A DNA stretch of 64,000 nt from Candidatus Thorarchaeota archaeon SMTZ1-45 (GTDB lineage Archaea > Asgardarchaeota > Thorarchaeia > Thorarchaeales > Thorarchaeaceae): positions 2 to 64,001 of the forward strand of contig LRSL01000118.1 in the NCBI GenBank assembly GCA_001563335.1, read 5' to 3'. Shown here piece by piece: positions 5,069 to 25,451 of this stretch. Numbering within the stretch: the first letter of the stretch is position 1; each line of letters opens with the position of its first letter. The position numbers were made by a program, and so were the translations under genes. The notes beneath the pieces were generated by a model. It did not search any database. It was not told where the DNA came from and saw only the letters and a list, made by a program, of their open reading frames with translations.

Positions 5069-7441
5069 TTATTTCTTTCCCCCTCTCAAACCGGGGAACC
5101 AATACTGAGTACTCCTAGAATAACTGCGTTGTTCTTTTGCAACACCATTCTTAACAAGGAGTTCAAGCGCGTTCTTCACTCGTTCCTCAGTCCAACCCAG
5201 ACTTACAACAGCATCTTCTATGTTGAGAAGTCCATCTTTGCTTGCTGCAAGACTGAGTATCTCTTGTGGATCATTTGTGAGTGCGACAGGGACGAATTCC
5301 ACCAGTAGCGCGCCTCCCTCTATTTTAGAGAGACCCTGAATTAAGCCCTCTTTGGCCATGTCTTCTATAATTCGTTCAATTTCATTTGCATGAGTTCCCC
5401 ACCCAGCAATATCCAGTCGTACAAGGAGTTCTGAGAAAAGCATGATTCCACCAAACATTTTGGAATCTTCTGCCATCCTAAGGATGTCACGTCGAAGACC
5501 ATCAGTTCTATTATCTCTCTTCAGGAGTCTTCTGACCATTCCAGATTGCTTCTTTGCTTCAGCGATCCATGATTCAGGTTCATAGCCTAATTCAGTAAGG
5601 AGCTCGAAGAGCGCAGATCTATATGCTGGAATACTTAGTAAGGTGCTTCCTTGGGTTTCAAAGGCCTCCCATAAGCGCTCACGAATCATATCTAAGCGCC
5701 GAGATCTATCAACTAATTCATCTAGTCTAGCTGCTATTTGCTCTTCATGTGAAAGTGAATTGAGCATTATTGGTATCGCCACAGCACTTGTTGATTCAAT
5801 TGTAAATTCAATAGGTTTGTCAAAATATCTCGACGCACGAACAACACCTTCGTAGCTACTCATTGGTATGGAAACAACAATGATTCCTTTGTCATCAGAT
5901 TTTGCAGAAATTGCACCTAGTTCAAGCTCAGCGTTTTCGACCGGTCGTCCAGCTTCGTCTTGAATATGAAATCGTACACGACAAAGGGTTCCATCAACAA
6001 CAAGAGGAGTAACACGACGTTTCATGCGTGTCTTTATTTTTACTTCAGGAAAACCTGACAAGATGACTTGCAATTCTTCAATTAGTGGACGTTTCACAAG
6101 TCCATCACCCAAGAGTGATTCCGCACCCTCCAGAATTAGAGTCCTAGATTCTTTTACTGAGAGTAGATTGAAATTCTTAGAAGACTCTCGTATGAATTTC
6201 CTCAACGCAACATCATTATTTGCTCTTTCACTCAATAGTGATGTGATAGCATCTATAGCTCGAGAGGGGCTTGAGAACCCATCGACAAAATCACGTCTTC
6301 GACTTACTTTTTCACCATTAGAAACAAGTTGAGAGATTGGATAAACTTCAATATGGAGTTGCCCCTTTTTTGAAAAGCCAGCAAGGAAGAAAGGTAACAG
6401 AATTAGGGCGTCTTTGCCCCCATCGTTCACAGGTGATATAGGGACAGACATATCGATAATGGAGGAAAGTTGATCATTAAGTGTCATTTTGGCAGCCTGG
6501 AATTCTGCAACAAGATTATCTCTCTCTATGAGTAAGTTTCGTGAGTTTCCTTGGATATTAGAGAGTGTTTCATTTCTTCTGGCTTCATCACGTTCAAGAG
6601 CAGCTTTTCTTGCCAACAGTGTTGTCTTTATTTCTGCAAGTCGCTCCGGTTTTGTATCTGATGATGATGCTGAAATTTTGGTAAATTCTGACTCCAGAGT
6701 TTCGATTTGTTGATGTAATGAATCAATCCGCAAGTCCAATCTTGAAAGAATTGGAGCTGATTCAGCCTCACCTTTTTCTACTACTGACTCAACCTTTGCT
6801 GCTAGATTATCAATGAGAGAGGATACTGTTTTCTCAACTGAACTCAAGGTTGATGCGGTTTCTAGCAGGATATCGATTGATTTTTGAAATTCCTTCTGCT
6901 TCAGTAAGCCTGCAAGAAGTACTTCGAAGTCCTCAACTTGATTTCTAAGAGGCCTGTCGAGTATCTGTGCAATTCCTCGAGCCATCAATCCACTCATCAA
7001 GCCCAAGATTGTGAAACGTTCAGTTGTTCTTAGTGATGTAACTATTTCACAAGCATCCCTAACAGCTCCCAACAGTGTTTCAGCATCGATACTTGATTCA
7101 AGCTTCTCAACAATTGATGTAGTTGTGTAACTTCTTTGTTTTATAACAGACTCACTAGTGAGGCCTAGAAGTTCAACAAGAAAACTCCGATTGGGAAAGG
7201 GGGATTTAGCTATTTCCACAGGCAAGTAGCATTTGAGAATGAATTCAAGTTCGCGACCATCGCGTTGTTCTATTGCACGAAGAACCATGCCAGCTAAAAC
7301 ATAATCTTCTGGTATTGACTGTTCCATTGGTTGACCGCCTGCTAACTGGAGTCTCCTCGTAGCTGTTGAGGGTACAATGAGGTTCCAACGGTCAAGGTTC
7401 ATCGTGATTCCTATTGTTGAAATCATAGGAATGCTTTTCAT
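5069..7441 (-). CDS. Large coiled-coil protein with a C-terminal EAP30 (ESCRT-II Vps22/Vps36-like) tandem winged-helix domain
   Basis: 790 aa. The last ~220 aa align by eye to human SNF8/EAP30: GGIMLFSELL, LLVEFVPVAL, LGWTEERVKNALELLVKNGVA, and terminal YWFPGL versus SNF8 HYWLPALF. The centre is heptad-rich helical. The N-terminal ~560 aa are unassigned. Confidence 0.75.
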   Translation of the reverse strand: MKSIPMISTIGITMNLDRWNLIVPSTATRRLQLAGGQPMEQSIPEDYVLAGMVLRAIEQRDGRELEFILKCYLPVEIAKSPFPNRSFLVELLGLTSESVIKQRSYTTTSIVEKLESSIDAETLLGAVRDACEIVTSLRTTERFTILGLMSGLMARGIAQILDRPLRNQVEDFEVLLAGLLKQKEFQKSIDILLETASTLSSVEKTVSSLIDNLAAKVESVVEKGEAESAPILSRLDLRIDSLHQQIETLESEFTKISASSSDTKPERLAEIKTTLLARKAALERDEARRNETLSNIQGNSRNLLIERDNLVAEFQAAKMTLNDQLSSIIDMSVPISPVNDGGKDALILLPFFLAGFSKKGQLHIEVYPISQLVSNGEKVSRRRDFVDGFSSPSRAIDAITSLLSERANNDVALRKFIRESSKNFNLLSVKESRTLILEGAESLLGDGLVKRPLIEELQVILSGFPEVKIKTRMKRRVTPLVVDGTLCRVRFHIQDEAGRPVENAELELGAISAKSDDKGIIVVSIPMSSYEGVVRASRYFDKPIEFTIESTSAVAIPIMLNSLSHEEQIAARLDELVDRSRRLDMIRERLWEAFETQGSTLLSIPAYRSALFELLTELGYEPESWIAEAKKQSGMVRRLLKRDNRTDGLRRDILRMAEDSKMFGGIMLFSELLVRLDIAGWGTHANEIERIIEDMAKEGLIQGLSKIEGGALLVEFVPVALTNDPQEILSLAASKDGLLNIEDAVVSLGWTEERVKNALELLVKNGVAKEQRSYSRSTQYWFPGLRGGKK

Positions 7442-7508: not shown

Positions 7509-7916
7509 ATGAATATGAAAAGAGATGATCCTCTGCTGCTTCCATTATGTCAAATCTGTGGAGAATACAAAGGCGTTGGACCTTGTAAGAATCCAGCATG
7601 TCCAGATTGTTTTAGTAGAGATACTGCTTTGAGAAAGGAAGATGTGGAACAGAACACACACCAAACGTGTGGTATCTGTGGAAAGGTGAAGTTTGTTAGC
7701 TGTGCTCAATGTGGAAATAGTTTTTGTGAATCACATAGTTTGGGTGCCAATTCGAATCATTTCATGAATTTTAACCAACATCTTGGAACATGTGTGGAGT
7801 GCCTGAAGATTATCTGTGAGAACTGCTGGATTCTAAGTCCAAAAGGGGAGATTATTTGCTTAGTACATCTAGAGAAAGAACGAAAAACACATGCATATCG
7901 CTCACCTAACCCTTAG
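7509..7916 (+). CDS. Cysteine-rich multi-zinc-finger protein
   Basis: 135 aa with CQICG-x9-CKNPACPDC, CGICG-x7-CAQCGNSFCESH and CVECLKIICENC...CLVH. The middle unit follows a CxxC-x7-CxxC-x4-CxxH cross-brace (HIT/B-box-like) spacing. Confidence 0.65.
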   Translation: MNMKRDDPLLLPLCQICGEYKGVGPCKNPACPDCFSRDTALRKEDVEQNTHQTCGICGKVKFVSCAQCGNSFCESHSLGANSNHFMNFNQHLGTCVECLKIICENCWILSPKGEIICLVHLEKERKTHAYRSPNP

Positions 7917-7940: not shown

Positions 7941-9086
7941 ATGTTAATACTACAACTCCATAGAGTGGGACGGCATATGCCAGAGGCAACATTTGTGGTT
8001 CATCTTGATGATTATCAAGGATTCCTAGTTAAGCAAAGATACCCCTCATCACTTACTCTCAATGAGAAAGTTTTGAATTTGATTTTCTATGAGCAACAGA
8101 AAGAGGATAAAGAGGAATTGAGTCTGGCGGAAATTGAAGGATTTAGAATAGCAATCTTCAGCGCACCAGAATATCCAAAATGGATGGTTTGCACTATCCT
8201 CGGTGCTGAGGAGGATTACAACCTAGTCGATGAAGGACTTGCCGGTTCAGGAAGGCTCATTCTTGCCTTAATGAATGAAGATGAGGAATCAGTGAATCTT
8301 GAGGAGATTGTTAAAGCTGGGAGTATCCTAGAAAAGACCAAGGAAGAGCAAAAACTTGCATCTATCTTTCTCACTCCATCGTCAGCGTTACTACTCGAAC
8401 GTATGCAATATGAAGGTGTTGAGAAAGCTGCTAAACTCTCAATTTGGCTAAAGAATCAGGTCCAAGATGAAGTAGACCTTCGTGAGGCAATGGCGCCTCT
8501 AATGAACACAGGCGTGGTTAAAGTTGAACTCGTCGGAAAAACATCAGAGATGGTCTTTCTTGTCAAAGACATCTTTGGCTACCGTGCTCCACCCGTTGAA
8601 TCTCTAAAGAGAGCTGCTCAAATAATACCAAGTATCGCAGAAAGATACAAAGAATATGTAACAGCATTCTTCTCACCACCCCCTCCAAACAAAGGATACA
8701 ATCCAACTTTGCCCATTAGTGATCCAAACTCACCCATTCTTGAAGATAGAGAGAAACTCTCTCGTCTTCTTGCTGATAGTTTGAACTACATGGTTCTTGA
8801 TTCATTGAGAGCTGAACCACTCTCTGCAGCAGAGGTGTCTTTGAAAACTGCACTTCCAGAATCCATAGTGAAGAAAGTACTTTGGGCACTGGAATCAGAG
8901 AAGGTAGTCGTCCATTTTGAGGATGAGGATGTATGGGCACTTTTAACGAATCCTCGGATTGAATCTTTTATTCCTGAATACGTCCTACCAATGATTAAGA
9001 AGAAGGTATCAGAGAAAGAAATAACACCACAAATTGCACGCAGACATCTTGAACTCTTGATTCAAAACTATGGTGAGCCGGAATGA
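7941..9086 (+). CDS. Hypothetical protein: N-terminal alpha/beta domain plus two winged-helix-like segments
   Basis: 381 aa. GAGG lies 12 nt upstream of the ATG at 7941; the alternative start is 7977. WH-like stretches are LREAMAPLMNTGVVKVELVGK and LSAAEVSLKTALPESIVKKVLWALESEKVVV. The stop overlaps the next start (ATGA at 9083). Confidence 0.7.
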   Translation: MLILQLHRVGRHMPEATFVVHLDDYQGFLVKQRYPSSLTLNEKVLNLIFYEQQKEDKEELSLAEIEGFRIAIFSAPEYPKWMVCTILGAEEDYNLVDEGLAGSGRLILALMNEDEESVNLEEIVKAGSILEKTKEEQKLASIFLTPSSALLLERMQYEGVEKAAKLSIWLKNQVQDEVDLREAMAPLMNTGVVKVELVGKTSEMVFLVKDIFGYRAPPVESLKRAAQIIPSIAERYKEYVTAFFSPPPPNKGYNPTLPISDPNSPILEDREKLSRLLADSLNYMVLDSLRAEPLSAAEVSLKTALPESIVKKVLWALESEKVVVHFEDEDVWALLTNPRIESFIPEYVLPMIKKKVSEKEITPQIARRHLELLIQNYGEPE

Positions 9087-9934
9087 TCAGAAGTGTCTAT
9101 GTACTTGGCGAGCAGGGAAATATGCTCTATTCCAAAGATTATGCTAAAAGTGAGTCTAAAGCAGAACTGGTTGAGTTTCTGGTCAATCTTACTCATTTCT
9201 TGAAGACTGTAGACCTTGAAGATAAGACAGAGTTCATGAATGTGGCTATTTCACGTATCTTCTTTGCACAGAGAGATAATTTCACGTTCATGTTTGTTGC
9301 TGACAAGGCAGATGATGCAACTCAAATTGAAGAAAAGATGGGGCAATTAGTTGATTCATTTATGCGTGATTTTGCAAACCTAGCTCATGCAAACCAACCA
9401 CTAGATGGTTTTGATGAGAAAGTTGATGAGATTGCTGTCACGATGGTAAAAGTCGCCATCTTGGGGTTTGCAGGTGTTGGAAAAACCACGACACTCCATC
9501 TTCTTAGAGGTGAAACCCTTCCTCTTGTCCATGATCCCACAATAGGTGTATCAATCAAAAAATTACCTGAAGAGGTAGAGAATGCCAACATAGTTCTTTG
9601 GGATCTAGCTGGGCAGTCAAGATTTAGCATCCTATGGGCGAAAATGATTGCTAATGCTCAGGTTGTAATCATAGTCACGGACAGTACCTTAGAGAATGTT
9701 TTGAGGAGCAAGAAGCTAGTAACTCTTGTTAAAGAAGAGGTTCCTGATGCAAAAGTTATAGGTATCGCCAACAAACAAGACCTTCCTACTGCTTTAACAC
9801 CAGAAAGAGTCGGTCAAATTCTTGGAATTCCAACTTACGAACTTGTGGCCATTGACATTTCATATAGAGATAGGCTTATTCAAATCATTCGAAGAGCCAT
9901 CCTTGAGGGGAAGGCTGAAACAAAAGCCGCTTGA
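9083..9934 (+). CDS. Longin-like domain fused to a Ras-superfamily small GTPase
   Basis: The N-terminus MIRSVYVLGEQGNMLYSKDY... resembles the start of AP sigma-adaptin/longin folds. The C-terminal half has G1 GFAGVGKTT, G2 PTIGV, G3 WDLAGQ and G4 NKQD. GGTGA lies upstream. Confidence 0.85.
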   Translation: MIRSVYVLGEQGNMLYSKDYAKSESKAELVEFLVNLTHFLKTVDLEDKTEFMNVAISRIFFAQRDNFTFMFVADKADDATQIEEKMGQLVDSFMRDFANLAHANQPLDGFDEKVDEIAVTMVKVAILGFAGVGKTTTLHLLRGETLPLVHDPTIGVSIKKLPEEVENANIVLWDLAGQSRFSILWAKMIANAQVVIIVTDSTLENVLRSKKLVTLVKEEVPDAKVIGIANKQDLPTALTPERVGQILGIPTYELVAIDISYRDRLIQIIRRAILEGKAETKAA

Positions 9935-10022: not shown

Positions 10023-10589
10023 ATGTCCTTTGATATAAGCGCAATAATGGAGAAACTTAAAGAAATCGAAGACTTCGCCGAGAACGTAGCTGAAACCAAG
10101 AAGCTTGCGGATCAATTGGCTGAGAACTTCACGAAAATGAAGATGTCTATCAATCAGACGATTAATGATAGCTTTGCAGAAATAGCCAATCAGATTGAAG
10201 CTCTGAGGCAGAACATGGAGAAAATGGAAAGCGTCAAGACAGATGCCCCAAAAGTTGAGACTCCGGCCCCAGCACCAAAGCCTGCACCAGCGCCGGAGAT
10301 TACGACTCCAGCTCCTGAACCAACACCAGAACCAGTTGTTGAGGTGACTCCTGAACCGGTGCCGGAACCAGAACCCGAACCTGTCGCAGCAACTGAGGCT
10401 GCACCAGCAGAGGGTAGCGACCAGTTGGACTTCCTGCTTCAACAGAAAGATAGGCTGAAAGCTCAATTAACTGACCTGCGTTTTGACTACATGCGAGGGT
10501 ATATTCCAGAGGATGAGTACAAGACAAAAGAATCAGAGCTTGACACACAGCTTGAAGATATTGACAAACAGATTGCTGCCTTAAAATAA
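10023..10589 (+). CDS. Coiled-coil protein with a central Pro/Glu/Ala-rich linker
   Basis: 188 aa. Helical heptad ends flank APAPKPAPAPEITTPAPEPTPEPVVEVTPEPVPEPEPEP. Confidence 0.6.
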   Translation: MSFDISAIMEKLKEIEDFAENVAETKKLADQLAENFTKMKMSINQTINDSFAEIANQIEALRQNMEKMESVKTDAPKVETPAPAPKPAPAPEITTPAPEPTPEPVVEVTPEPVPEPEPEPVAATEAAPAEGSDQLDFLLQQKDRLKAQLTDLRFDYMRGYIPEDEYKTKESELDTQLEDIDKQIAALK

Positions 10590-10775
10590 GAAGTTGCAGT
10601 TAATTGTCTGGATGCAGACCCAGTCATAGCTTAGAATAGGGCAAAGGAATAATATTCGAGCCCTACTTCTTCTTTTTGACTAGTCTAGCAATTGCTTACA
10701 GGTAATTTTTGATTCTAGAATCAATATGCCATCGAAACTGTTTAGCAAGGGAACAAGTTGTGTCTATGATGGATT

Positions 10776-11621
10776 TTATTTCTTTTTAGTAGCCGTTTTT
10801 GAACCAGCTTGTGATTCATCAGCTTTCTTCTTGGTAGTCTTCTTCTTCGGAGCTTCCTTCTTCTCAGTCTTCTTCTTCGGAGCTGCTTTCTTCTCGTCCT
10901 TCTTCGGAGCTTCCTTCTTCTCAGTCTTCTTCTTCGGAGCCGCTTTCTTCTCGTCCTTCTTCGGAGCCGCTTTCTTCTCGTCCTTCTTCGGAGCTGCTTT
11001 CTTCTCTTCCTTCTTCTTTGGAGCCGCTTTCTTCTCTTCCTTCTTCGGAGCTCTCTTTCGAGTAACTTTCTTCTTTGGTATCTCTTCTTCTTCTTCTCGT
11101 TCCATTTTAGTTTCAGGCTTGGATGGAATTACCTCCAAAGGTTCGACAATGACCTCTGGTCTCGTGTCTTTGCGTTCCTTCTTTTCACCAGCTTCTCTTC
11201 GCTTTCGTGCAAGTTTGCTTGGTTTTACCAATTCTGGACTTGATGCTGCAGCAAGTGCAAGATCCATCTCCTCAGTAATTACAGGTTCCTTGGGTACACT
11301 AGATGCAATTTCTTCAAGAGCATCAGCAACCACAATTGGAGCTCCACCTTCTCGTTTCTCCAATTCAGACGGTGTAGTGTAAACAACAAACCCGCCTTCG
11401 CGGATATAGGGAACAACTGCTCCCTCTGATTCTTTCTCTTTTAGTATCCTACGGGCAATACTCATACGAATATTGAAACGATGGGCTAAATCATAACAAG
11501 TGACTGATTTTGCTTTCTTGAGGTATTCATCAATACCAGATTGTGTATCAGGTTTTGGAATTGCATCTCGAATAACTCTCTCTGTCTTTACGGCTGATTT
11601 GCCCCACTTCTTACGGCTGAT
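10776..11621 (-). CDS. Ribosomal protein eS25-like winged-helix domain with a long acidic/Lys-rich repeat tail; non-canonical start
   Basis: The frame is open to 11645, well upstream of the tracked ATG at 11465. The extended product reads SRKKWGKSAVKTERVIRDAIPKPDTQSGIDEYLKKAKSVTCYDLAHRFNIRMSIARRILKEKESEGAVVPYIREGGFVVYT, which matches the eS25 pattern (KKW-K ... ARR-L-E ... VYT). No ATG, GTG or TTG is present upstream. AGGAGAG lies 8 nt before the ATC at 11621. Confidence 0.6.
   Translation of the reverse strand: MSRKKWGKSAVKTERVIRDAIPKPDTQSGIDEYLKKAKSVTCYDLAHRFNIRMSIARRILKEKESEGAVVPYIREGGFVVYTTPSELEKREGGAPIVVADALEEIASSVPKEPVITEEMDLALAAASSPELVKPSKLARKRREAGEKKERKDTRPEVIVEPLEVIPSKPETKMEREEEEEIPKKKVTRKRAPKKEEKKAAPKKKEEKKAAPKKDEKKAAPKKDEKKAAPKKKTEKKEAPKKDEKKAAPKKKTEKKEAPKKKTTKKKADESQAGSKTATKKK
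10840..11052 (-). repeat. In-frame tandem repeats of about 27-30 nt encoding KKAAPKK(D/K)E / KKEAPKKKTE
   Basis: The unit cttcttcggagc[ct][tg]c[ct]ttcttctc recurs at least 7 times on the + strand, inside the eS25-like CDS. Confidence 0.8.
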
Positions 11622-16949: not shown

Positions 16950-18434
16950 CTATGGATTGTAGGCGAATGGGTGCCTTGCTGATTCTTTTCGAGCAATTAT
17001 CTCATCTACTCCCTGACGACTCTCTATTGCCCTCCTGAGCGCATGTCTCACAGCAATGAAGTTGTTAATATGAACTCGTGTCTTGTTAACCGCACTTGGG
17101 TGTACAAAGACATTTGCAGCAATAACAAGGTCCCGAACAAGTTCCTCAGGGATTATATTGTCAGTGATTGTCCGGCGCACTGCATCAGCCACAGCCCTTT
17201 GTGCAACATCATAGACCATCTTCTTGTGATCTTCTGATGTGATTGTAACTGTGGGAGCAAAAACAGTAATCAACTCAAGGTCCTTAATGATATTCGATTG
17301 ATGCGTGTCCTCTGTCACTTTCCCTGCATTCCTAATTGCCACTCTCATGGGACCATCACGAATGCCCAATATTAGATCAACATGAGCAACTTCATTACCA
17401 CCACCAAATAACGCTTCTCCATGCATCAAGGTCAGATCTGGAATCACATCTGGCACCATTCCAACAGCTTTGGGGTAAGTTTCAGACTCAATTGAACGAT
17501 TACCCATCTTGAATGTGACAATACCACGTGGGATCATCTGAAGATCCTCAAGGCAAGTTCGAATCTCATCATGCATGTCATATCCAAGAATATCTCCAAT
17601 TAGGAGAGGCCGTCTAGCAAGTCCCACTGGCACACCCATCATATTCAAAGCCGCTTTTACTGCTAGTCCACCTCCATTGTTAACAAAAATACGTACAATC
17701 TTCTGAATGCTTCTTTGAATAATACGCGCTTCTTTCAGGTCTCCTGTGGCAAGTGCTGTTTGCATCCTAATATAGCGGTCAGGAAAAACGTTGGCACTCG
17801 CTAGAATTGCACCATTACAACCAGATGCAAGTGCAGGTAAAGCAACTTCATCATGACCCACCATCACTTGGAAGTTTTCTGGTTTTCGGACCAGAATTGT
17901 CGTCAGATTTACTAGGTCGCCACTAGAATCCTTCAAACCGATTATTCCATCAATATCTCGAAGACCATCAATAAGAGTCCAATGCATGGGAACGCCAGTC
18001 ACTTGGGGAATATTGTAAACAATGATTGGTATGTCACTATTATTAGCTATCTTTTCAAAATGTTCATAGATTTCTTTGTTTGATGGCTTCAGGAAGTAGG
18101 GAGAAACGATAAGCGCTGCAGCAGCTCCAAACTCAGCAGCTCTTCGAGTCAGTTTGATAGCATCATTTGTATACGCATGGCCGGTTCCAGCAAGCACTGG
18201 AACTCTTCCTTTTGCAGCTTTGCATGCTATACGTATTGCTTCCTCTTTCTCCTCAAATCTCATGCTTGTGAACTCCCCTGTAGTTCCACATGGCACGATG
18301 CCAGTCGCGCCACTCTTAATCGTGAAATCAATGAGATTGCGATACTGTTTTTCATTCACACCATTCTTATCAAAGGGTGTAACGAGCGCAGGGTAGACAC
18401 CTTTGAAACGATATTCAGCTGTCATTGGGATCAC
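16950..18434 (-). CDS. DapA-family class I aldolase fused to a C-terminal formaldehyde-activating-enzyme (Fae)-like domain
   Basis: The N-terminal ~300 aa carry GTTGEF, YNIP and IIGLKDSSG (Schiff-base Lys). The C-terminal ~170 aa carry GEALFGGGNEVAHVDLILGIRDGP ... IIPEE ... VFVHP ... ARHPFAYNP, matching Fae as I recall it. Confidence 0.85.
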   Translation of the reverse strand: MIPMTAEYRFKGVYPALVTPFDKNGVNEKQYRNLIDFTIKSGATGIVPCGTTGEFTSMRFEEKEEAIRIACKAAKGRVPVLAGTGHAYTNDAIKLTRRAAEFGAAAALIVSPYFLKPSNKEIYEHFEKIANNSDIPIIVYNIPQVTGVPMHWTLIDGLRDIDGIIGLKDSSGDLVNLTTILVRKPENFQVMVGHDEVALPALASGCNGAILASANVFPDRYIRMQTALATGDLKEARIIQRSIQKIVRIFVNNGGGLAVKAALNMMGVPVGLARRPLLIGDILGYDMHDEIRTCLEDLQMIPRGIVTFKMGNRSIESETYPKAVGMVPDVIPDLTLMHGEALFGGGNEVAHVDLILGIRDGPMRVAIRNAGKVTEDTHQSNIIKDLELITVFAPTVTITSEDHKKMVYDVAQRAVADAVRRTITDNIIPEELVRDLVIAANVFVHPSAVNKTRVHINNFIAVRHALRRAIESRQGVDEIIARKESARHPFAYNP

Positions 18435-19825
18435 CTCCAGATTCCTTCAAGTGCGCTTTCTACAGCTTGTTTTGTTGCTGCAGTAATTTCACGACGATTT
18501 CTTGAATTCAAATCTATGTCCAAAGCCAGAATGACTACATCATCAGTCATTGTTTTTGTGGGTATCTTTTCAGATTCCAAGAAAGATGCTATAGCTTTTG
18601 CAGCACCGGATTGTACAGGTCCATAGAACAATGAAGCTTGACGCATGGAATCGATTTTTCGGGTCGGAAACATTAGAGTACTAGGTTTTACAGCAAGATT
18701 TGGCTCGAGAATAACACTTAGAGCCTCATGTCCAATCTTCGGTACTGTGAGCAGGCGTACAAATGCACTGCCAACCAATCCTGCTTTGGGACCAGTAATT
18801 ATGCCTACTGACACTATTTCGTTTGCAGCACTACTTTTCTGCAGTTCTGAAACATCTTCAAGGAGAATTCCCTGATCTTCAAGGACAGCCAGTATATTGA
18901 TGTCATCCTGAACTGATGGATGTTCCAACTTCGAGATTACACCCATCTTCTCAAGCTCTATACGAATCTCTTCCTTAATCTCAGGAATAAGGGTTCCTCC
19001 ACTGTCCAAAGGCATCCGAGAACGACCTGCATTAATACCAAGCATTCTAAGAGCGGCTTTCACTGGTGGAGCAGCCCCATATTTTAGAACCATTCGAGCA
19101 AAAGTCTGTGTGGATCTTTGGAGTTCTGCAGCCTCCTCAACTCTTCCATTCTGTGCCAAGTTCATAATTTCAAGCCAGATATGCGGGATGACATTGGCAG
19201 AAGCCATAATTGCAGCTTTTGAACCAGCTACAACTGCAGAGAGGAAACACTCGTCTGCACCTATGATGACCTCCATTTTCCCCTTAATCTTTTGAATCAG
19301 TTCCAGAATATAAGGTACGCTTCCACTGCTGTCTTTAATTCCAACAATGTTATCTAATTCAGCCAAGTCTTCAACAACATTAGAGTTCAGGACTCCAAGT
19401 GTACACTGAGGAATATTGTACATAATTATAGGGAGATTACCATCACTGGCAACTTTTTCATAGTGCTCATAATATCCCTTGTCTGTTGGCCGGAGAAAAT
19501 AAGGAGATATTACAATCGCTGCATCATATCCCAAATCAGCAGCAAACTTTGTTAACGCGATAGTTGCCCGGGTGCTATGCTGACCAGTACCAGCAATTAT
19601 TGGAACCCGTCCATCTACATATTTGACTGTAAGTTTTAGCATCTTCTTACGTTCTTCCGTTCTCAGGTATGAGAACTCACCAGTTGTGCCTAGGGCTACT
19701 ACTCCGGTTGCACCCTTCTCTATCGTATAGTCAATGACTTGCCTATACCCATCCTCACTAATATCTCCATCACGTGTGAATGGGGTCACAAGCGCAGGCA
19801 TTACTCCTTCTGGCTTGAACTTCAT
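18431..19825 (-). CDS. Second DapA-family aldolase fused to a divergent Fae-like domain
   Basis: GTTGEF, YNIP and IVGIKDSSG. The C-terminus reads ITGPKAGLVGSAF ... LSVILEPNLAVKPSTLMF ... FYGPVQSGAAKAIASFLESEKIP. The start is taken at MKFKPEGV (ATG at 19825). The stop overlaps the next start (ATGA). Confidence 0.8.
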   Translation of the reverse strand: MKFKPEGVMPALVTPFTRDGDISEDGYRQVIDYTIEKGATGVVALGTTGEFSYLRTEERKKMLKLTVKYVDGRVPIIAGTGQHSTRATIALTKFAADLGYDAAIVISPYFLRPTDKGYYEHYEKVASDGNLPIIMYNIPQCTLGVLNSNVVEDLAELDNIVGIKDSSGSVPYILELIQKIKGKMEVIIGADECFLSAVVAGSKAAIMASANVIPHIWLEIMNLAQNGRVEEAAELQRSTQTFARMVLKYGAAPPVKAALRMLGINAGRSRMPLDSGGTLIPEIKEEIRIELEKMGVISKLEHPSVQDDINILAVLEDQGILLEDVSELQKSSAANEIVSVGIITGPKAGLVGSAFVRLLTVPKIGHEALSVILEPNLAVKPSTLMFPTRKIDSMRQASLFYGPVQSGAAKAIASFLESEKIPTKTMTDDVVILALDIDLNSRNRREITAATKQAVESALEGIWR

Positions 19826-19949
19826 CAGAGAATCACCATAGCCTCGAGCTTCGAAGTGGGTATAAATGGCCTTCGATTTATGAGAGAATAAGGTCAGTAG
19901 AAATTTAGTAATAGAAGTCGCTATATGATATCTTTGTGAGAGATAAATC

Positions 19950-20270
19950 ATGCATGAATATGTAGTTGTCATGACAACATGTCCAATGGAGATTAGTGAT
20001 GAGTTGGCTCGAATCTTGGTTGAAAGTCGAGCATGTGCTTGTGTAAATATTATACCCAAGATTACTAGTGTGTACCATTGGAAAGATGAAATAGTCGTAG
20101 ATGATGAATCCCTTTTGATAATGAAGACAGAAACAAAACAATCTGAACATCTCTGGAATGTTCTGAAGGACAATCATCCCTATGAGGTTCCAGAGTTTGT
20201 TGTTCTCCCTATCGAATGGGGCTCGCAGGACTATCTTGATTGGATTTCAAAAAGCGTACAGAAACGTTGA
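19950..20270 (+). CDS. cutA: Divalent-cation tolerance protein CutA
   Basis: 106 aa with the CutA1 pattern: VVMTTCP...A..LV...ACACVNIIP...SVYHWKDEI...E..L+MKT...YEVPE. Confidence 0.85.
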   Translation: MHEYVVVMTTCPMEISDELARILVESRACACVNIIPKITSVYHWKDEIVVDDESLLIMKTETKQSEHLWNVLKDNHPYEVPEFVVLPIEWGSQDYLDWISKSVQKR

Positions 20271-20279
20271 GTCAGCCAG

Positions 20280-22730
20280 CTATGCGATATCAGCTCTGCG
20301 AGCTGCATATGTTAGGGATTCGTTAAAGTATTTTCCAACAATTGCGCATATTGCAGGACCAACAACATAGTTGATTTCCCCAGGCATTAGCTCCTTCAGA
20401 TTTGTCTTTGAGGTCAGTTTGCCTTTTCTCTTGAGAATCCCTATCTCCCGATCAATGGTGGATTTTGCTTTATCCCAAGACATGGGCTCAACACCTCGAC
20501 CTGTACCTATCAAACCCTCTTTGATTTCAAATAGACTTCGCATAATGAAAATTGATAGATTATCCATATCAGAAGAGTCTTTCATGAAATTGACACCATG
20601 CTGTGAGCATTTTGCATTGCTTGGTTCAGATCCACAAGCAGAGCATATCTTACGTCCTCTGTTTGTTTTGATATAGTATGCCAAAAGATTAGCACATTTT
20701 GTAGTGTCATTTGGAGTCCATACAAGACCCTTCGCTCCCACTCGACTTATGGCTCGAAATACTGTGCGTGCTTTGTTGTGAAGGTACATCAAAACATCAA
20801 TGCCCTCTTTCCGCTCCTCAATTCTACGTTTTTCCTTCTGTTTGGCTTCGAAGGCAAACTCCTCCTTTGCGAGTTTCTCAAGCCGCTCTTGTTTCAAGAA
20901 ACGCTGCATGATATCATAGGCTATTGCATAGTTATCGAACTCCAAACTGGTCATATCTAACGATTTATCGACAATACCCTCAAAGACTGGACTGATGGAG
21001 GTTTCAAGGTCTTTAGCAGCAGCTATCATATCCTTCGTCGAAAATCGAGCGTGCATCCATGTGCAAATTGACTGTGCATCTAACTCAGGATAAACAATCT
21101 TCATCTCGTAAATTCTCATGGATGCAAGATCAATCAAGATTTCTTCTCTAAGGAATTGCAGGGTTGTATCAGTATCTTCGTAAATACTCTTTAAAAGTGC
21201 TTTAATTCGAAGAAGGTCTTGTTTAGATCGAATATAGGATTCAACGACTCGTGTTAGATTTGTAAGAATACCAATCGTGAAATGCCAAATGAAATCGAGT
21301 CTCAAACTTACAATTGTTTCATCTTCTGTTCTCTGTTGACTGAAATCACGAGCTGATGAAATACCAAGAGAACTCAGTGCACCACTTTTAACCTGCTCAC
21401 GTGTTTCTAGAAGCCTGATGACCTCTGCAGGAGGTGGAACTCGCATTTTATTATTGAGTGCTTCGAGTACTTCTATTTCTATACCGACTAATTTTGCACG
21501 ATCCTTGGTAAACATATCTATGCTGATTTTATCAAGTTCAGTTGCACGAAGTCCTTTTGATCTAAGCATGCCCTTAACTGGTCCATTAAGTGTATTTTCT
21601 ATCTTCTCGAGAGCCTTCAATGAGCGCTCAAGCATCTCAAGTTCTTCCTTACTAATAGCTGGTGCTGATGAATCTGAAGTGCTATCAGCAGTCAATGATT
21701 TTAATCCAGGACCGATTATTGATAAGTCGCTTATACCCTTCCTTCGAAGCTGTGCTTTAACATCATCAATATCTACATTGAGAAATTTCGAAATTGTATC
21801 AAGTACGGAATCCGAATCTATTGATAAGATTTCAGCAGCTTTGGTAGTCACAACCTGTCCTAGACGAGATTCATAATTTTCTAGCGTAGTTGGAATATCG
21901 AATTCTTTCTCGAGAACTTCGAGCAAATGTAATCTAATTTCATGAGCATTCCTAAGACCCTTGAGAGTATCAATAGGTTTGCAGAATCTCTTCGTTATTG
22001 TTGATGCAATCTCATCCCAACTCTTAATTGGAATGGTTGTATCAAAAATGTGGCCCTTAGAATATTCTATTCGTCCAAATATTTTCTCAAGACCCATTTT
22101 AAGAATGGTGGTTTCGGGAACCTCTGAAGGATGTTCCCGCAGCAATTCATCTCTTAGAGATAGCGCACTCTCCTTTAAACCAGAAGCTTTGACATATAGC
22201 TCCTGTCGCCAATCTTGACCCCAACCAGTGACCTCGAGTATCAAGTCAATATCATGATTAGAATTGTATTCAGAAGGGATTTTTTTTAAGGTTTCTTTGA
22301 GTAGATTGAGTGCCTTATCTTTACTATCGGAATTAGGATTTGCACCTCCCAGTTCGTCAACGAAACAAATTATCAACTCACTTACTAGCTTAGCAACATC
22401 AATCTCCTCACGCTGTTTACCCGAGAAGAATTGTCGGACTTCAAGCTCAAGCTGTCGTCGTTCCTCCGCCCCTAGTTCATCTTTCATGTCACTGCCCGCA
22501 CTAGGCACCTCCGATGGGGTCAGAAGGCGAATACCCTGATAGCTGTGGAGATAGAATGCAGCAAAGAAGGAAAAAACATCTTCAAGCGGTCGAGGTTCCT
22601 TGAGTAGTTCGTGAAATAATTGACGATCTCTGCTACTTCGCATATGTGAAGCCAGGGCTTCTCTCAGTAGTATCTCTTTGCCAGCCTCACTCATTTGACG
22701 TGTCTTTAATACCCAAGAACTTACCATCAT
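20280..22730 (-). CDS. Large orphan alpha-helical protein with a C-terminal Cys4/His zinc-ribbon-like motif
   Basis: ~816 aa. The ATG at 22730 lies 3 nt after the upstream stop and is preceded by GAGGTGA. CSACGSEPSNAKCSQHG lies near the C-terminus. No NTPase or other catalytic motif was found. Confidence 0.8.
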   Translation of the reverse strand: MMVSSWVLKTRQMSEAGKEILLREALASHMRSSRDRQLFHELLKEPRPLEDVFSFFAAFYLHSYQGIRLLTPSEVPSAGSDMKDELGAEERRQLELEVRQFFSGKQREEIDVAKLVSELIICFVDELGGANPNSDSKDKALNLLKETLKKIPSEYNSNHDIDLILEVTGWGQDWRQELYVKASGLKESALSLRDELLREHPSEVPETTILKMGLEKIFGRIEYSKGHIFDTTIPIKSWDEIASTITKRFCKPIDTLKGLRNAHEIRLHLLEVLEKEFDIPTTLENYESRLGQVVTTKAAEILSIDSDSVLDTISKFLNVDIDDVKAQLRRKGISDLSIIGPGLKSLTADSTSDSSAPAISKEELEMLERSLKALEKIENTLNGPVKGMLRSKGLRATELDKISIDMFTKDRAKLVGIEIEVLEALNNKMRVPPPAEVIRLLETREQVKSGALSSLGISSARDFSQQRTEDETIVSLRLDFIWHFTIGILTNLTRVVESYIRSKQDLLRIKALLKSIYEDTDTTLQFLREEILIDLASMRIYEMKIVYPELDAQSICTWMHARFSTKDMIAAAKDLETSISPVFEGIVDKSLDMTSLEFDNYAIAYDIMQRFLKQERLEKLAKEEFAFEAKQKEKRRIEERKEGIDVLMYLHNKARTVFRAISRVGAKGLVWTPNDTTKCANLLAYYIKTNRGRKICSACGSEPSNAKCSQHGVNFMKDSSDMDNLSIFIMRSLFEIKEGLIGTGRGVEPMSWDKAKSTIDREIGILKRKGKLTSKTNLKELMPGEINYVVGPAICAIVGKYFNESLTYAARRADIA

Positions 22731-22733
22731 CAA

Positions 22734-25370
22734 TCACCTCAAGAATGTGTTCCCGACTGAAACAGTCAACTCATCAGCCCTGCGTTCAAAGGTTACAAGA
22801 TAGAGTAAATCATCCACTTTAGGATCCCGCAAGTACATGCGAGTTATTCTTGGGAGTGATTTCCCAAGACCACGTACCTTGGAACCCATCAAATATTCAA
22901 TGAATTCATCACCGAGATCTAGTCCTATCATAGCGGCTGCTCCAATTCCTTCTGCTTGAAGCCGGAGAACGCGTTTCCCGAAAGTAGTCGCCATATCTTT
23001 TTCTCGCTCTTTCAAGTGGTCGAGTTTGCTTTGAAGTAAATCCCTTAACTCAACATAGTACTTGAGAGAGGGATCCGGTTCAGGCTTGGGAGGAATGGAT
23101 TTCTCTTCCTTCACAGGATATTGCGTTCGTATTTCATGCAACTCTGCATCAATCGGTAGTGGCTTTGTTGGTTCCATTGGGGGCGGTGCTAGTGTTTGAT
23201 CAGTTTCACCATGTGTGATAGATTCTGCATCTTGAATAGCTCGGTAGCGTTCCATCTGTGCCATATAGTCATTTAGGGCAAGCTCATACTCTCTCATCTG
23301 GTTTTCGAACTGTTGCGTCTTTTGATCAAGTAATTTCTCACGTTTTACATTATGTTCTCGTATTGCGACATTTTCTTGTTCGATAATATGACATGTTCTT
23401 TCCCATTCCTGTATTTCCGCTTGGTATTCTTGTTCTCTTTGATCAGCTTCGAGCTTTGCACGGTTCACCATTGCGCTAGGCGTGACTGTTTCACCAACTA
23501 TTTCGTGAATAGAATTCAGAAGTTTTAGGAGAGATTCGGATTTGGTCATTGAATCATCCAGAGTTGTCTTAAAGCTCTCAACCCATTCAATTGCTTCCTT
23601 TTTCCACTCATCAGCTCTTTCACCAGCTCCTTCCACGGCAGCTTCAAGCTCTTCAACAAGACTAGCTTGTTCAGTCAGCATCTTATCTATGATGCGCCGG
23701 ATCAAGGGTTTTGAAAGGAGCGTATCTGCAACATCAGGGATGATGTCTGATACAAGATCTTGAAACTCATTTAGGAGTTTCATAAGAGCTTCTCCATGCT
23801 CAGTAAGGTCTTCAGAATCAGGAACTGCGTATTTGATAGCAATCTCTCTTTTGGCAATCTCGGCTACATTCTCAAATCCGATAAGATTCCATATGTCAAT
23901 TTTCTTGAATGATTCTATCAATTGACGTGTGACTAAATCCATGAGTTGTTTGAAGTCTTCATACTTGGTTCCCTTGAAAGCTTCTTTTGAGAAAGCTGCA
24001 TTAAGCTGCGCTTGAATCTCAGCATAGAACAGGTCAAACAAAGTGAGATCAGTGGGCCCAATATCTTCTTGTAGAGTTTCTTTCTTGAATTCTTGGAGAG
24101 CTGTGAAGAACGCCTTCTTGGCTGCATTTGTCACTAGATACTGATTAAGTTCCTTGGAGAAATATTGTAGGACTCTCTTAGCATATGCAATAACATATCT
24201 CATTGTTCCTTTTAGTTCCCAAGCACGAATCTCTCTAGCCCCTCGAAATTCACGGCTGACTGAGTTCATGATCCCATCAATGATACAAATCGCAAGGTTG
24301 TTCTTTGTTCCTGAAGAAACATCACTATTTGTAGAAACTCCAGAGGTTAATGAACTCTTATGATCCTCAATAGTCAAAGTTTTTCCTGAACTAAGATGTT
24401 CTTCCACAATATGTTCTAAGGCATTGATAGAGTCTCCTAGAATTTTTACAAACTCACCAATGCGAGGTCTTAGCGTTTCTATTTCTGATAGAGAAACCTC
24501 TGATTTGCCAAGAAATTCTATTAATGCCTTTACAACGCCCCCAACTAATTCTGACTCCTCAACCGCATAAGCATAGTAGTTTATTTCATTCAAAAGAGAC
24601 TGACCGGTTTCTGGCACAACCTTTGTTAAAGCTTCAATAGCACTAGGTGTCAATACACGATGCTTGAAATGAGCAACTAGTCTATCGTCTGGTTCATTGG
24701 GAAGTTTAAACTCTAGACTCTTTCGACCTCGGATTTTCATTCCAGGAGGTAAAAGCGTAAAATCATCAACTACTTCCAGCTTTGCAACCAAGTCAACATC
24801 GACATGGTCAGGTTTGACTTGTAGTGAGTCCCAAGACCCTTGAAACCGCCGATCAAGCATGTCAACAAAGAGAACACTGTTTAGTCGGTCAGTAAATTTA
24901 GTAATTACTGAGATTCCTTCCAACTCGTAATTCAGTTCATTATTAATCACAGCACTCTCGACATCAGAAATCTTCTTAGAAACAGCCTTCATGTATTCAT
25001 TAATTTTGAATGGATCAACAACTCCTTTTTCCCAGCTTAACACACAGACATGAGAGCCAACGCCTCCTTCACTTCCACCAGCAACCACAAGTTGATCAGG
25101 TAACACATCAGAACCAGGAGTCCTATCGAGATCCCATTCGATTGAGAGTATCTCTAATCCTTCGGATGACATCAAGGTGTCTCTAATAGTGAAAACTAGT
25201 GGGACTATGTTCATCGAAACACTTGCAGAGTGTTGCTCCAACATACTTCCAGCACCAATGGCACTTCCAATGGAATATCCAAGCCCTGTTGAAGTCCCTA
25301 ATACAGACGCAGATGCCATTCGAATTGCTTCAACAGTACTTGGGGCTTGTACATCTCTAGGGTCCGACAT
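22734..25370 (-). CDS. Large orphan protein: beta-rich N-terminal region, long helical/coiled-coil region, Pro-rich linker, small C-terminal domain
   Basis: ~878 aa from the ATG at 25370 (AGGAG upstream; the tracked start at 25412 is TTG). Heptad-rich segment EADQREQEYQAEIQEWERT...; linker LAPPPMEPTKPLP...PPKPEPDP. No recognised motif. Confidence 0.8.
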   Translation of the reverse strand: MSDPRDVQAPSTVEAIRMASASVLGTSTGLGYSIGSAIGAGSMLEQHSASVSMNIVPLVFTIRDTLMSSEGLEILSIEWDLDRTPGSDVLPDQLVVAGGSEGGVGSHVCVLSWEKGVVDPFKINEYMKAVSKKISDVESAVINNELNYELEGISVITKFTDRLNSVLFVDMLDRRFQGSWDSLQVKPDHVDVDLVAKLEVVDDFTLLPPGMKIRGRKSLEFKLPNEPDDRLVAHFKHRVLTPSAIEALTKVVPETGQSLLNEINYYAYAVEESELVGGVVKALIEFLGKSEVSLSEIETLRPRIGEFVKILGDSINALEHIVEEHLSSGKTLTIEDHKSSLTSGVSTNSDVSSGTKNNLAICIIDGIMNSVSREFRGAREIRAWELKGTMRYVIAYAKRVLQYFSKELNQYLVTNAAKKAFFTALQEFKKETLQEDIGPTDLTLFDLFYAEIQAQLNAAFSKEAFKGTKYEDFKQLMDLVTRQLIESFKKIDIWNLIGFENVAEIAKREIAIKYAVPDSEDLTEHGEALMKLLNEFQDLVSDIIPDVADTLLSKPLIRRIIDKMLTEQASLVEELEAAVEGAGERADEWKKEAIEWVESFKTTLDDSMTKSESLLKLLNSIHEIVGETVTPSAMVNRAKLEADQREQEYQAEIQEWERTCHIIEQENVAIREHNVKREKLLDQKTQQFENQMREYELALNDYMAQMERYRAIQDAESITHGETDQTLAPPPMEPTKPLPIDAELHEIRTQYPVKEEKSIPPKPEPDPSLKYYVELRDLLQSKLDHLKEREKDMATTFGKRVLRLQAEGIGAAAMIGLDLGDEFIEYLMGSKVRGLGKSLPRITRMYLRDPKVDDLLYLVTFERRADELTVSVGNTFLR

Positions 25371-25451
25371 GTGTAGACACTCCTGAACGAAAGCGAAAGC
25401 TGTAAGATACAAAGAATCAATATCGCAATCTTTTGAATATAGCTCGGTCAG

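Follow-up and report, generated by a model that had tools for sequence, protein, structure and literature searches.

A translationally coupled longin–winged-helix gene and longin-Arf-like GTPase gene in Thorarchaeota: a candidate GTPase–partner pair

The genomes of Asgard archaea encode small GTPases and longin/roadblock proteins by the dozen, and hardly any regulator has been assigned to its GTPase. Genome layout rarely helps to pair them (Tran et al. 2024, PMC10933270). A stretch of 64,000 nucleotides (nt) from Candidatus Thorarchaeota archaeon SMTZ1-45 (contig LRSL01000118.1; hereafter the window) raises the question whether such a pair can nevertheless be recognised from its genes. In this window, a gene for a longin-small GTPase fusion (gene B) overlaps with the gene directly upstream (gene A), whose product is predicted to consist of a longin-like domain and two winged-helix (WH) domains; a small coiled-coil gene (gene C) follows. 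A previous interpretation based on the letters of the DNA (the sequence-only reading) had proposed A and B as a GTPase plus regulator module. The locus represents one concrete GTPase-partner pairing that is translationally coupled and kept in two Asgard classes, and we regard gene A as a candidate regulator of the gene B GTPase. The proteins A and B are small and soluble-looking, and the pair is directly testable. All coordinates are window positions. The GC content of the window is 41.6%, and tRNA and Rfam scans of it revealed no RNA genes.

Coupling and conservation of the gene pair

The upstream open reading frame (ORF) extends from 7941 to 9086 on the + strand and encodes 381 amino acids (aa) in its long reading. 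The true start of gene A is probably the ATG at 7977 (M13 of the 381-aa reading), which gives a protein of 369 aa (7977..9086, +), because most of its homologues, more than 100 proteins, are 368–370 aa long and begin with MPEATF, corresponding to M13, and because residues 1–11 of the long reading are disordered in the AlphaFold2 (AF2) model. The 12 codons from 7941 are probably untranslated; the ATG at 7941 is located in an AT-rich TTTATGTTAATA stretch that may represent an archaeal TATA box, which it resembles. Gene B (9083..9934, +) encodes a protein of 283 aa. The stop codon of gene A (TGA, 9084–9086) lies partly inside the start codon of gene B (ATG, 9083–9085), so that the two genes share the ATGA at 9083..9086, as had been noticed in the sequence-only reading. 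Furthermore, the 3' end of gene A contains a Shine-Dalgarno-like motif, GGTGAG (9072..9077, +), which precedes the gene B ATG by 6 nt. The translational coupling proposed from this overlap is borne out by the comparison of 38 Thor-type loci: in all of them gene B starts between -8 and +2 nt relative to the gene A stop (-4 in 22 loci, -1 in 4, -8 in 2, +1 or +2 in 10), and a GGTGA/GGAGTGA Shine-Dalgarno-like motif is found 6–10 nt before the gene B start in nearly all of them.

Genes A and B are adjacent in 62/62 loci spanning both (Thorarchaeota and Jord/Freyarchaeia). Gene B was found in 37 Thorarchaeota-type metagenome-assembled genomes (MAGs) with 79–97% identity (one genome per species scanned), and gene A is located directly upstream of it in 37/37 Thor species genomes. 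These 37 species loci share a collinear block containing genes for YdjM, a 790-aa protein (- strand), a zinc-finger protein, A, B and a coiled-coil protein. Gene B is the most conserved gene of the neighbourhood, far above its neighbours, and is under purifying selection. A deep Thor-like MAG, counted among the 38 Thor-type loci, keeps the pair as well (48% identity for gene A, 71% for gene B). In a metagenome search started from gene A, 23 loci were retrieved, and gene B directly follows in all 22 of these that extend downstream.

Synteny around the locus is generally high in Thorarchaeota (the 10-kb neighbourhood is collinear), which lowers the value of adjacency within this lineage; the comparison of Thor with Frey/Jord is therefore the only strong test of it. 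Freyarchaeum deiterrae and a Jordarchaeales contig possess a full-length gene A homologue (26% identity, E 9e-31), which is located 14–29 nt upstream of the gene B orthologue (~41–43% identity). The flanks of these loci are unlike those in Thorarchaeota, with Pribosyltran upstream and Nre or TBP downstream. These data bear directly on the possibility that adjacency reflects mere co-transcription of unrelated genes in a strongly syntenic region. The collinearity throughout Thorarchaeota would fit this possibility, as would the junction itself, for four-nucleotide overlaps are common in prokaryotic operons. Still, we consider it highly improbable, since Jord/Freyarchaeia retain the A-B(-C) block amid entirely different surrounding genes, and both proteins have the longin fold, a fold usually associated with the regulation of GTPases.

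Gene C (10023..10589, +) encodes an acidic coiled-coil protein of 188 aa (isoelectric point (pI) 4.3) with coiled-coil ends and a low-complexity middle rich in P, E, A and T; it follows gene B in those Thor loci that are long enough. Over its C-terminal ~70 aa it shares 30% identity (E 3e-5) with a 107-aa protein encoded after the Frey orthologue of gene B. Such a small coiled-coil gene comes after gene B in both Freyarchaeum deiterrae and the Jordarchaeales contig, and it is kept in 5/5 Frey/Jord-type metagenome loci. The C-terminal segment (LRFDYMRGYIPEDEY...) is the part common to the small gene after the Frey/Jord orthologues; it gives weak Pfam matches to CdvA and GvpG and has a SHOCT-type look by eye. 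Gene C is thus a probable third gene of the A-B module.

The longin-Arf-like GTPase

Gene B encodes an N-terminal longin domain (aa 1–105; 9083..9397, +), a linker (9398..9442, +) and a G domain (aa 121–283; 9443..9931, +). The motifs G1–G4, which the sequence-only reading had listed as GVGKTT, PTIGV, WDLAGQ and NKQD, can all be read from the translation: G1, GFAGVGKTT (aa 128–136; 9464-9490), invariant in 37 homologues; G2, PTIGV (aa 152–156 with T153; 9536-9550); G3, WDLAGQ (aa 173–178 with D174 and Q178; 9599-9616); G4, NKQD (aa 230–233; 9770-9781; all +). All four, together with the catalytic Gln178, are intact. Where G5 would be expected the protein has only VAID (aa 255–258), in which the alanine is kept and the flanks are atypical; the Frey orthologue has this VAID as well. 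The G domain is nearly invariant within Thorarchaeota. The protein ends ~10 aa beyond the G domain and has no C-terminal roadblock domain.

By sequence similarity, gene B encodes a predicted GTPase of the Ras superfamily, and Arf is the family nearest to its G domain. It matches TIGR00231 (small_GTP) with 7e-16, above the model cut-off, and its top Pfam match is Arf (1.2e-19, 70.9 bits), followed by Roc (53.5 bits) and Ras (48.3 bits), with MMR_HSR1 also behind Arf; Gtr1_RagA (14.3 bits, cut-off 22) and SRPRB (18.9 bits, cut-off 25) are both below threshold. Arf/Arl chains make up nearly all of the 60 best PDB sequence matches (~1e-15 for Arl1/Arf1). In a small local phmmer test with manually entered reference sequences (including Myxococcus xanthus MglA), the bit scores of the protein were 58.9 for ARF1, 30.2 for RAB7A and 23.5 for HRAS, and its G domain gave no match to RagA and MglA; the ARF1 score agrees with the PDB search. 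Of the families Arf, Rab, Rag and MglA named in the earlier interpretation, Arf is the nearest by similarity score. The protein is not of the MglA or Era type, as it has no MglA match and its best scores are with Arf; the G3 aspartate, which is absent from MglA, is present. Two features depart from typical Arf proteins: G3 reads WDLAGQ rather than the Arf-family signature WDxGGQ, and the N-terminus is a ~105-aa longin domain rather than a free membrane-inserting amphipathic helix.

The N-terminus of the protein reads MIRSVYVLGEQGNMLYSKDY, exactly as given in the sequence-only reading, where its likeness to sigma-adaptin and longin N-termini had been pointed out. This likeness holds. A family profile built from an alignment of 31 diverse N-terminal domains and searched against the PDB matched AP2 mu (6.4e-6, aa 1–104) and AP2 sigma (4.4e-5, aa 1–97); the lower ranks are mostly MON1, AP3/AP4 sigma, zeta-COP, VAMP7 and Bet5, i.e., longin domains. 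In Pfam, Fuz_longin_1 is found in 7/31 members of this N-terminal family (best 3.5e-9) and Clat_adaptor_s in 6/31; with the gene B sequence alone, Clat_adaptor_s stays sub-threshold (E 0.0023–0.011). The structure prediction that had been suggested for the fusion was not usable: the AF2 model, made with 37 homologues of 88–97% identity, has a predicted local distance difference test score (pLDDT) of 51 and is unreliable, and only beta1, beta2, alpha1 and the C-terminal helices were recovered in it. This poor model adds nothing to the assignment, and the longin fold of gene B is assigned from sequence profiles, which support it. The linker contains a conserved amphipathic helix before G-domain strand beta-1, with the family pattern F-x2-F-x4-D-x-I (helix 110–120 in the low-confidence model).

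In an exhaustive search of 1.8 billion cluster representatives, 85 clusters (50% identity) matched gene B at E<1e-30, many of them aligning from residue 1 through the G domain. The closest homologues (88–100% identical) are named 'ADP-ribosylation factor-like protein [Candidatus Thorarchaeota archaeon]', and homologues named 'ADP-ribosylation factor-like protein' can be found in Thor, Loki, Odin, Hod, Hel, Heimdall, Hermod, Jord and Frey MAGs. Several of them carry precomputed Pfam Fuz_longin_1 or Clat_adaptor_s annotations. The named homologues belong to Asgard lineages, with two exceptions labelled Bathyarchaeota and Nitrososphaerota, which are probably binning or naming errors. In a rough neighbour-joining tree, the Thor and Jord/Frey proteins form neighbouring clades, and the Odin and Hod proteins form a separate subfamily.

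The architecture of gene B is not new, although the sequence-only reading implied novelty: longin-Arf-like fusions in Asgard archaea have been published since 2016. Klinger 2016 (as cited in PMC4917890) reported Arf-like GTPase fusions for five of the 41 longin domains of Lokiarchaeum, Liu et al. (bioRxiv 10.1101/2020.10.19.343400) mention longin-fused GTPases in Asgard archaea, and Tran et al. 2024 (PMC10933270) describe longin- and roadblock-fused GTPases in strain MK-D1. According to Vargova et al. (bioRxiv 10.1101/2024.02.28.582541), ArfL is an Asgard-only clade without a direct relationship to eukaryotic Arf. Zhu et al. 2025 (PMC11914678) note longin N-termini in some Asgard Arfs and regard the native regulators of Asgard Arf-like GTPases as still to be identified. 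Judged by its domain matches, gene B is a Thorarchaeota member of this Asgard-only 'Arf-like' group, and its fusion type is already published. We found no description of a conserved coupled longin-WH-WH partner in the papers cited here; this partner is the only element of the locus for which no published description was found.

The three-domain partner and its possible action

The AF2 model of gene A has a pLDDT of 85 and a predicted template-modelling score (pTM) of 0.81 and shows three domains: longin-like, WH and WH. The first of them was missed in the sequence-only reading. It comprises aa 16–117 of the 381-aa reading (7986..8291, +) and has the topology beta-beta-alpha-beta-beta-beta-alpha, without an N-terminal helix (DSSP: E16-23, E27-34, H42-54, E60-65, E68-74, E81-87, H93-117; pLDDT 77–89). 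Local Foldseek matches are to zeta-COP (probability 0.99), AP sigma subunits (0.95–0.98) and LAMTOR (0.96–0.97); neither Pfam (46 homologues) nor the PDB profile search gave a longin match for this domain. By its predicted structure the domain is longin-like.

The upstream protein had been described earlier as WH-containing, and this proved correct twice over. The first WH domain (aa 135–244; 8343..8672, +; pI 5.5) is recognised by its H-H-H-E-E-E secondary structure in the AF2 model, and the second (aa 266–375; 8736..9065, +; pI 5.0) by the model as well as by Pfam (HTH_Cmi2_C in 44/46 homologues, DprA_WH in 22/46, HTH_IclR in 21/46) and by the PDB profile search, in which it matched WH domains of the Z-alpha and ArsR types. 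Between them lies a proline-rich linker, SPPPPNKGYNPTLPxxDPNSP (8673..8735, +), in which G252, Y253, N254, P255, T256, S264 and P265 are invariant in 46 homologues (pLDDT ~72). The linker is Thor-specific and absent in the Frey/Jord orthologues (L038, L044); in Thorarchaeota the stretch FFSPPPPNKGYNPTLPxxDPNSPILEDRE is nearly invariant despite its predicted flexibility. It has the look of a short linear motif for interactions that is specific to this lineage.

Do these WH domains bind DNA? Gene A could be a WH transcription factor with a longin/roadblock-like sensor, the DNA binding of which is modulated by gene B, and the pair would then be a gene-regulatory switch instead of one acting at membranes or in trafficking. 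The C-terminal WH domain indeed matches the IclR, ArsR, MarR and TrmB helix-turn-helix (HTH) families in 9–21 of 46 homologues, and some homologues were named 'predicted transcriptional regulator' by JGI. However, these HTH matches are all sub-threshold or marginal in Pfam, both WH domains are acidic (pI 5.0–5.5, with 4.8 for the whole protein), and the best whole-chain folds are GTPase-regulator subunits, not transcription factors; a regulatory function of this kind appears improbable. WH domains of ESCRT-II are of a protein-binding type, and the acidic WH domains of gene A fit protein binding better than DNA binding.

The best whole-chain Foldseek matches of gene A are NPRL2/Npr2 chains of GATOR1/SEACIT (9o5d_D, 9v0j_A, 7t3b_B and 8adl_S), followed by Fuzzy and BLOC-3 (tri-longin subunits of guanine nucleotide exchange factors). 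The presence of NPRL2 in the GATOR1 PDB entries was confirmed, and 8adl_S was confirmed to be yeast Npr2. Gene A might accordingly be imagined as a GATOR1-type, NPRL2-like GTPase-activating protein (GAP) for gene B and a forerunner of GATOR1, folliculin and C9orf72-SMCR8. The alignments to NPRL2/Npr2 that head the list cover 323–365 columns with collinear domain order, and gene B keeps the catalytic Gln178, the target of a GAP. In addition, an NPRL2-like family (longin plus small C-terminal domain) has been reported from most Thor MAGs (bioRxiv 10.1101/2020.10.19.343400) and might be the gene A family. Nevertheless, several results weigh against any such kinship. The Foldseek matches are weak (E ~1e-3, 1.5e-3; template-modelling score ~0.2), hhalign of the gene A family against human NPRL2 (sequence checked against 6ces_N) was negative (probability 0.1%), and Pfam NPR2/NPR3 gave no match in 46 members of the gene A family. 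The GP motif before strand beta-2 marks GAP-type longins (PMC12290439); it is absent from gene A, where the invariant G27 is followed by F in Thor and by A in Frey/Jord. Across Thor, Frey and Jord, the longin-like domain (aa 13–120) has no invariant Arg, with R or K at position 33, and the beta4–beta5 loop (the putative position of NPRL2 R78) reads PEYPKW, without a conserved Arg. With both the GP motif and the conserved longin Arg absent, no catalytic mechanism can be named, and an arginine-finger GAP of the GATOR1/folliculin type is unlikely; we judge the NPRL2-like GAP quite unlikely as a whole. A role of gene A as exchange factor, stabiliser or effector is more likely.

How could the two proteins act together, then? 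Longin/roadblock dimers form a recurrent platform for binding small GTPases (Levine 2013, as cited in PMC10933270), and this platform binds the switch face of the small GTPase in MglA-MglB, Mon1-Ccz1, TRAPP and GATOR1 (PMC10933270). The 'GTPase plus regulator' interpretation of the pair is supported by the conserved adjacency and coupling and by the fact that the partner has its own longin-like domain. The likeliest reading, to which we give about an even chance, is that A and B, probably with C, form a conserved operon in which a longin-longin heterodimer controls or reads out the GTPase. The stop/start overlap and the internal Shine-Dalgarno-like site would lead to A and B being made in a fixed proportion. 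The longin domains of A and B would then pair as a heterodimeric platform, as in NPRL2-NPRL3, Mon1-Ccz1, TRAPPC1-C4 and the MglB dimer; this platform would contact the tethered G domain at its switch face and thereby set or sense its nucleotide state, and the winged helices of gene A could serve as protein-protein output or scaffold. The domain identities, the tight coupling and the conservation of the pair are observed, and we infer that the two proteins heterodimerise, that the G domain is contacted and in which direction regulation runs.

The pairing of longin domains could also take another form. Roadblock domains mediate the heterodimers of Rag GTPases and the homodimer of MglB, and gene B may in a similar way homodimerise by its own longin domain, gene A being a downstream effector or adaptor that binds the GTP form via its longin or WH domains. 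No gene A-like neighbour was found beside the longin-Arf-like paralogues of Odin, Hod, Hermod, Hel, Prometh-289 and Jord-304; this counts against a heterodimer, as the fused longin evidently can work without gene A and is self-sufficient there. Furthermore, Asgard roadblock/longin proteins homodimerise in solved or predicted structures (PMC10933270). But gene A has a longin-like domain of its own, and its conserved stoichiometric coupling to gene B is typical of obligate complex partners; a gene B homodimer is therefore rather unlikely. If the longin-longin heterodimer proposed here is true, a relative of the eukaryotic ancestor would have an Arf-like switch under the joint control of a cis-tethered longin and a trans partner. 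The current picture stays unchanged by this locus, as fusions of this type are known already and such building blocks are known to be abundant.

Surrounding genes and relation to known systems

Divergent from the operon lies the gene for the 790-aa protein (5069..7441, -), which most Thor loci keep at this place. Over the C-terminal ~215 aa, the protein matches the ESCRT-II subunit SNF8/Vps22 of humans (2zme_A, 1.2e-8; Pfam EAP30, 2.9e-4), and its C-terminus is 31% identical to that of a 605-aa Vps36-like protein of a Hodarchaeon (B-box, PH/GLUE-like, EAP30); the long N-terminal part gave no Pfam match except a weak V-SNARE. Comparison of the tandem WH domains of gene A with the EAP30/Vps22 domain of this neighbour by hhalign was negative. 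In Odinarchaeia and a Hodarchaeon (L039 4001-8876, L041 3501-7897, L042 3501-7395), a paralogous longin-Arf-like GTPase gene is located within 1–4 kb of ESCRT genes, which are two Snf7, Vps4, Vps25 (ESCRT-II) and an EAP30 gene in Odin and a Vps36-like gene in Hod; these loci share the gene order VTT_dom, UbiA, GTPase, OB_Ssb-like. The longin-Arf-like GTPase family may have a functional link to ESCRT. The Odin/Hod neighbours are no evidence for gene B, as their GTPases belong to a different subfamily in the rough tree.

A Promethearchaeota MAG (L045 1082-3870) carries, in this order, a longin-Arf-like GTPase gene (259-aa ORF), a gene for a 321-aa protein and another longin-Arf-like GTPase gene (289 aa). 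The N-terminus of the 321-aa protein weakly resembles the longin-like domain of gene A, and its C-terminus looks TFIIB/cyclin-like by eye. As a gene A-like candidate it was rejected, having only a weak N-terminal motif in common (hhalign E 0.006, probability 6%).

In most Thor loci, gene A is directly preceded by a gene for a cysteine-rich protein (135 aa; 7509..7916, +) with several CxxC pairs, weak AN1/HIT/C5HCH zinc-finger matches and only 30–59% identity. Downstream of gene C, a lysine-rich protein of 229 aa (10776..11465, -; pI 9.8) contains KKAAPKKxEKK-type repeats encoded by ~4 tandem copies of a 57-nt unit (10839-11078), and these repeats almost certainly account, as a mere shadow on the other strand, for an F/S-rich ORF of 218 aa (10726..11382). 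Further away, two adjacent paralogues (16950..18434 and 18431..20173, both -) each encode a DHDPS-family domain fused to formaldehyde-activating enzyme (Fae; DHDPS ~5e-75, Fae 1e-27 to 1e-29 in both), and two large adjacent ORFs of 817 and 892 aa (20280..25412, -) have no Pfam match at E<=0.001.

Among known systems, the Asgard ArfL/AArf proteins with N-terminal longin are closest to gene B. The architecture is identical (longin, then a G domain nearest to Arf, Asgard-only), and gene B shows no essential difference from them; a conserved cognate partner gene is not described for ArfL/AArf in the cited literature. For MK-D1, Tran et al. 2024 (PMC10933270) state that GTPase genes do not, as a rule, share an operon with genes for roadblock or longin proteins.

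GATOR1 offers a likeness for gene A. NPRL2/NPRL3 (Npr2/Npr3) likewise possess a longin-like N-terminus followed by a helical/WH C-terminal part, gene A adjoins a small GTPase gene and has its best whole-chain Foldseek match to NPRL2/Npr2, and the pairing of longin domains would be alike. However, gene A has neither detectable sequence homology to these proteins nor their GP motif or arginine finger, and the second longin is here fused to the GTPase. Moreover, the target of GATOR1 is RagA, whereas gene B is Arf-like and lacks a C-terminal roadblock domain, and no DEPDC5 equivalent was seen. One may imagine A-B(-C) as a surviving archaeal form of the longin-heterodimer GTPase controllers from which the GATOR1/folliculin types arose in eukaryotes, with one longin still attached to the GTPase and the other bearing an NPRL2-like WH tail, possibly feeding ESCRT-II-type remodelling via the Vps22/SNF8-like neighbour; we regard this as improbable.

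MglA-MglB, found in bacteria and archaea and usually encoded in one operon, resembles the locus in that a GTPase gene lies beside a regulator gene of the longin/roadblock superfamily, and in the logic of a platform on the switch face. Gene B differs from MglA in lacking a match to it and in keeping the G3 aspartate, and the regulator domains are here of the longin type (no N-terminal helix, C-terminal helices), one of them fused in cis. The eukaryotic SRX domain of SR-alpha with SR-beta likewise combines a longin-fold domain with an Arf-like G domain, but SRPRB is sub-threshold for gene B, an SRP-receptor NG domain and a transmembrane anchor are absent here, and nothing in the gene context points to the SRP pathway. 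Finally, the Asgard operon encoding a LAMTOR1-like roadblock protein, a Rab-like GTPase and DENN is likewise conserved and has been proposed to be a GTPase-regulator module (bioRxiv 10.1101/2020.10.19.343400). Its GTPase is Rab-like and it includes DENN, which is missing at our locus; the GTPase described here is Arf-like and has the longin fused to it, and its partner carries tandem WH domains.

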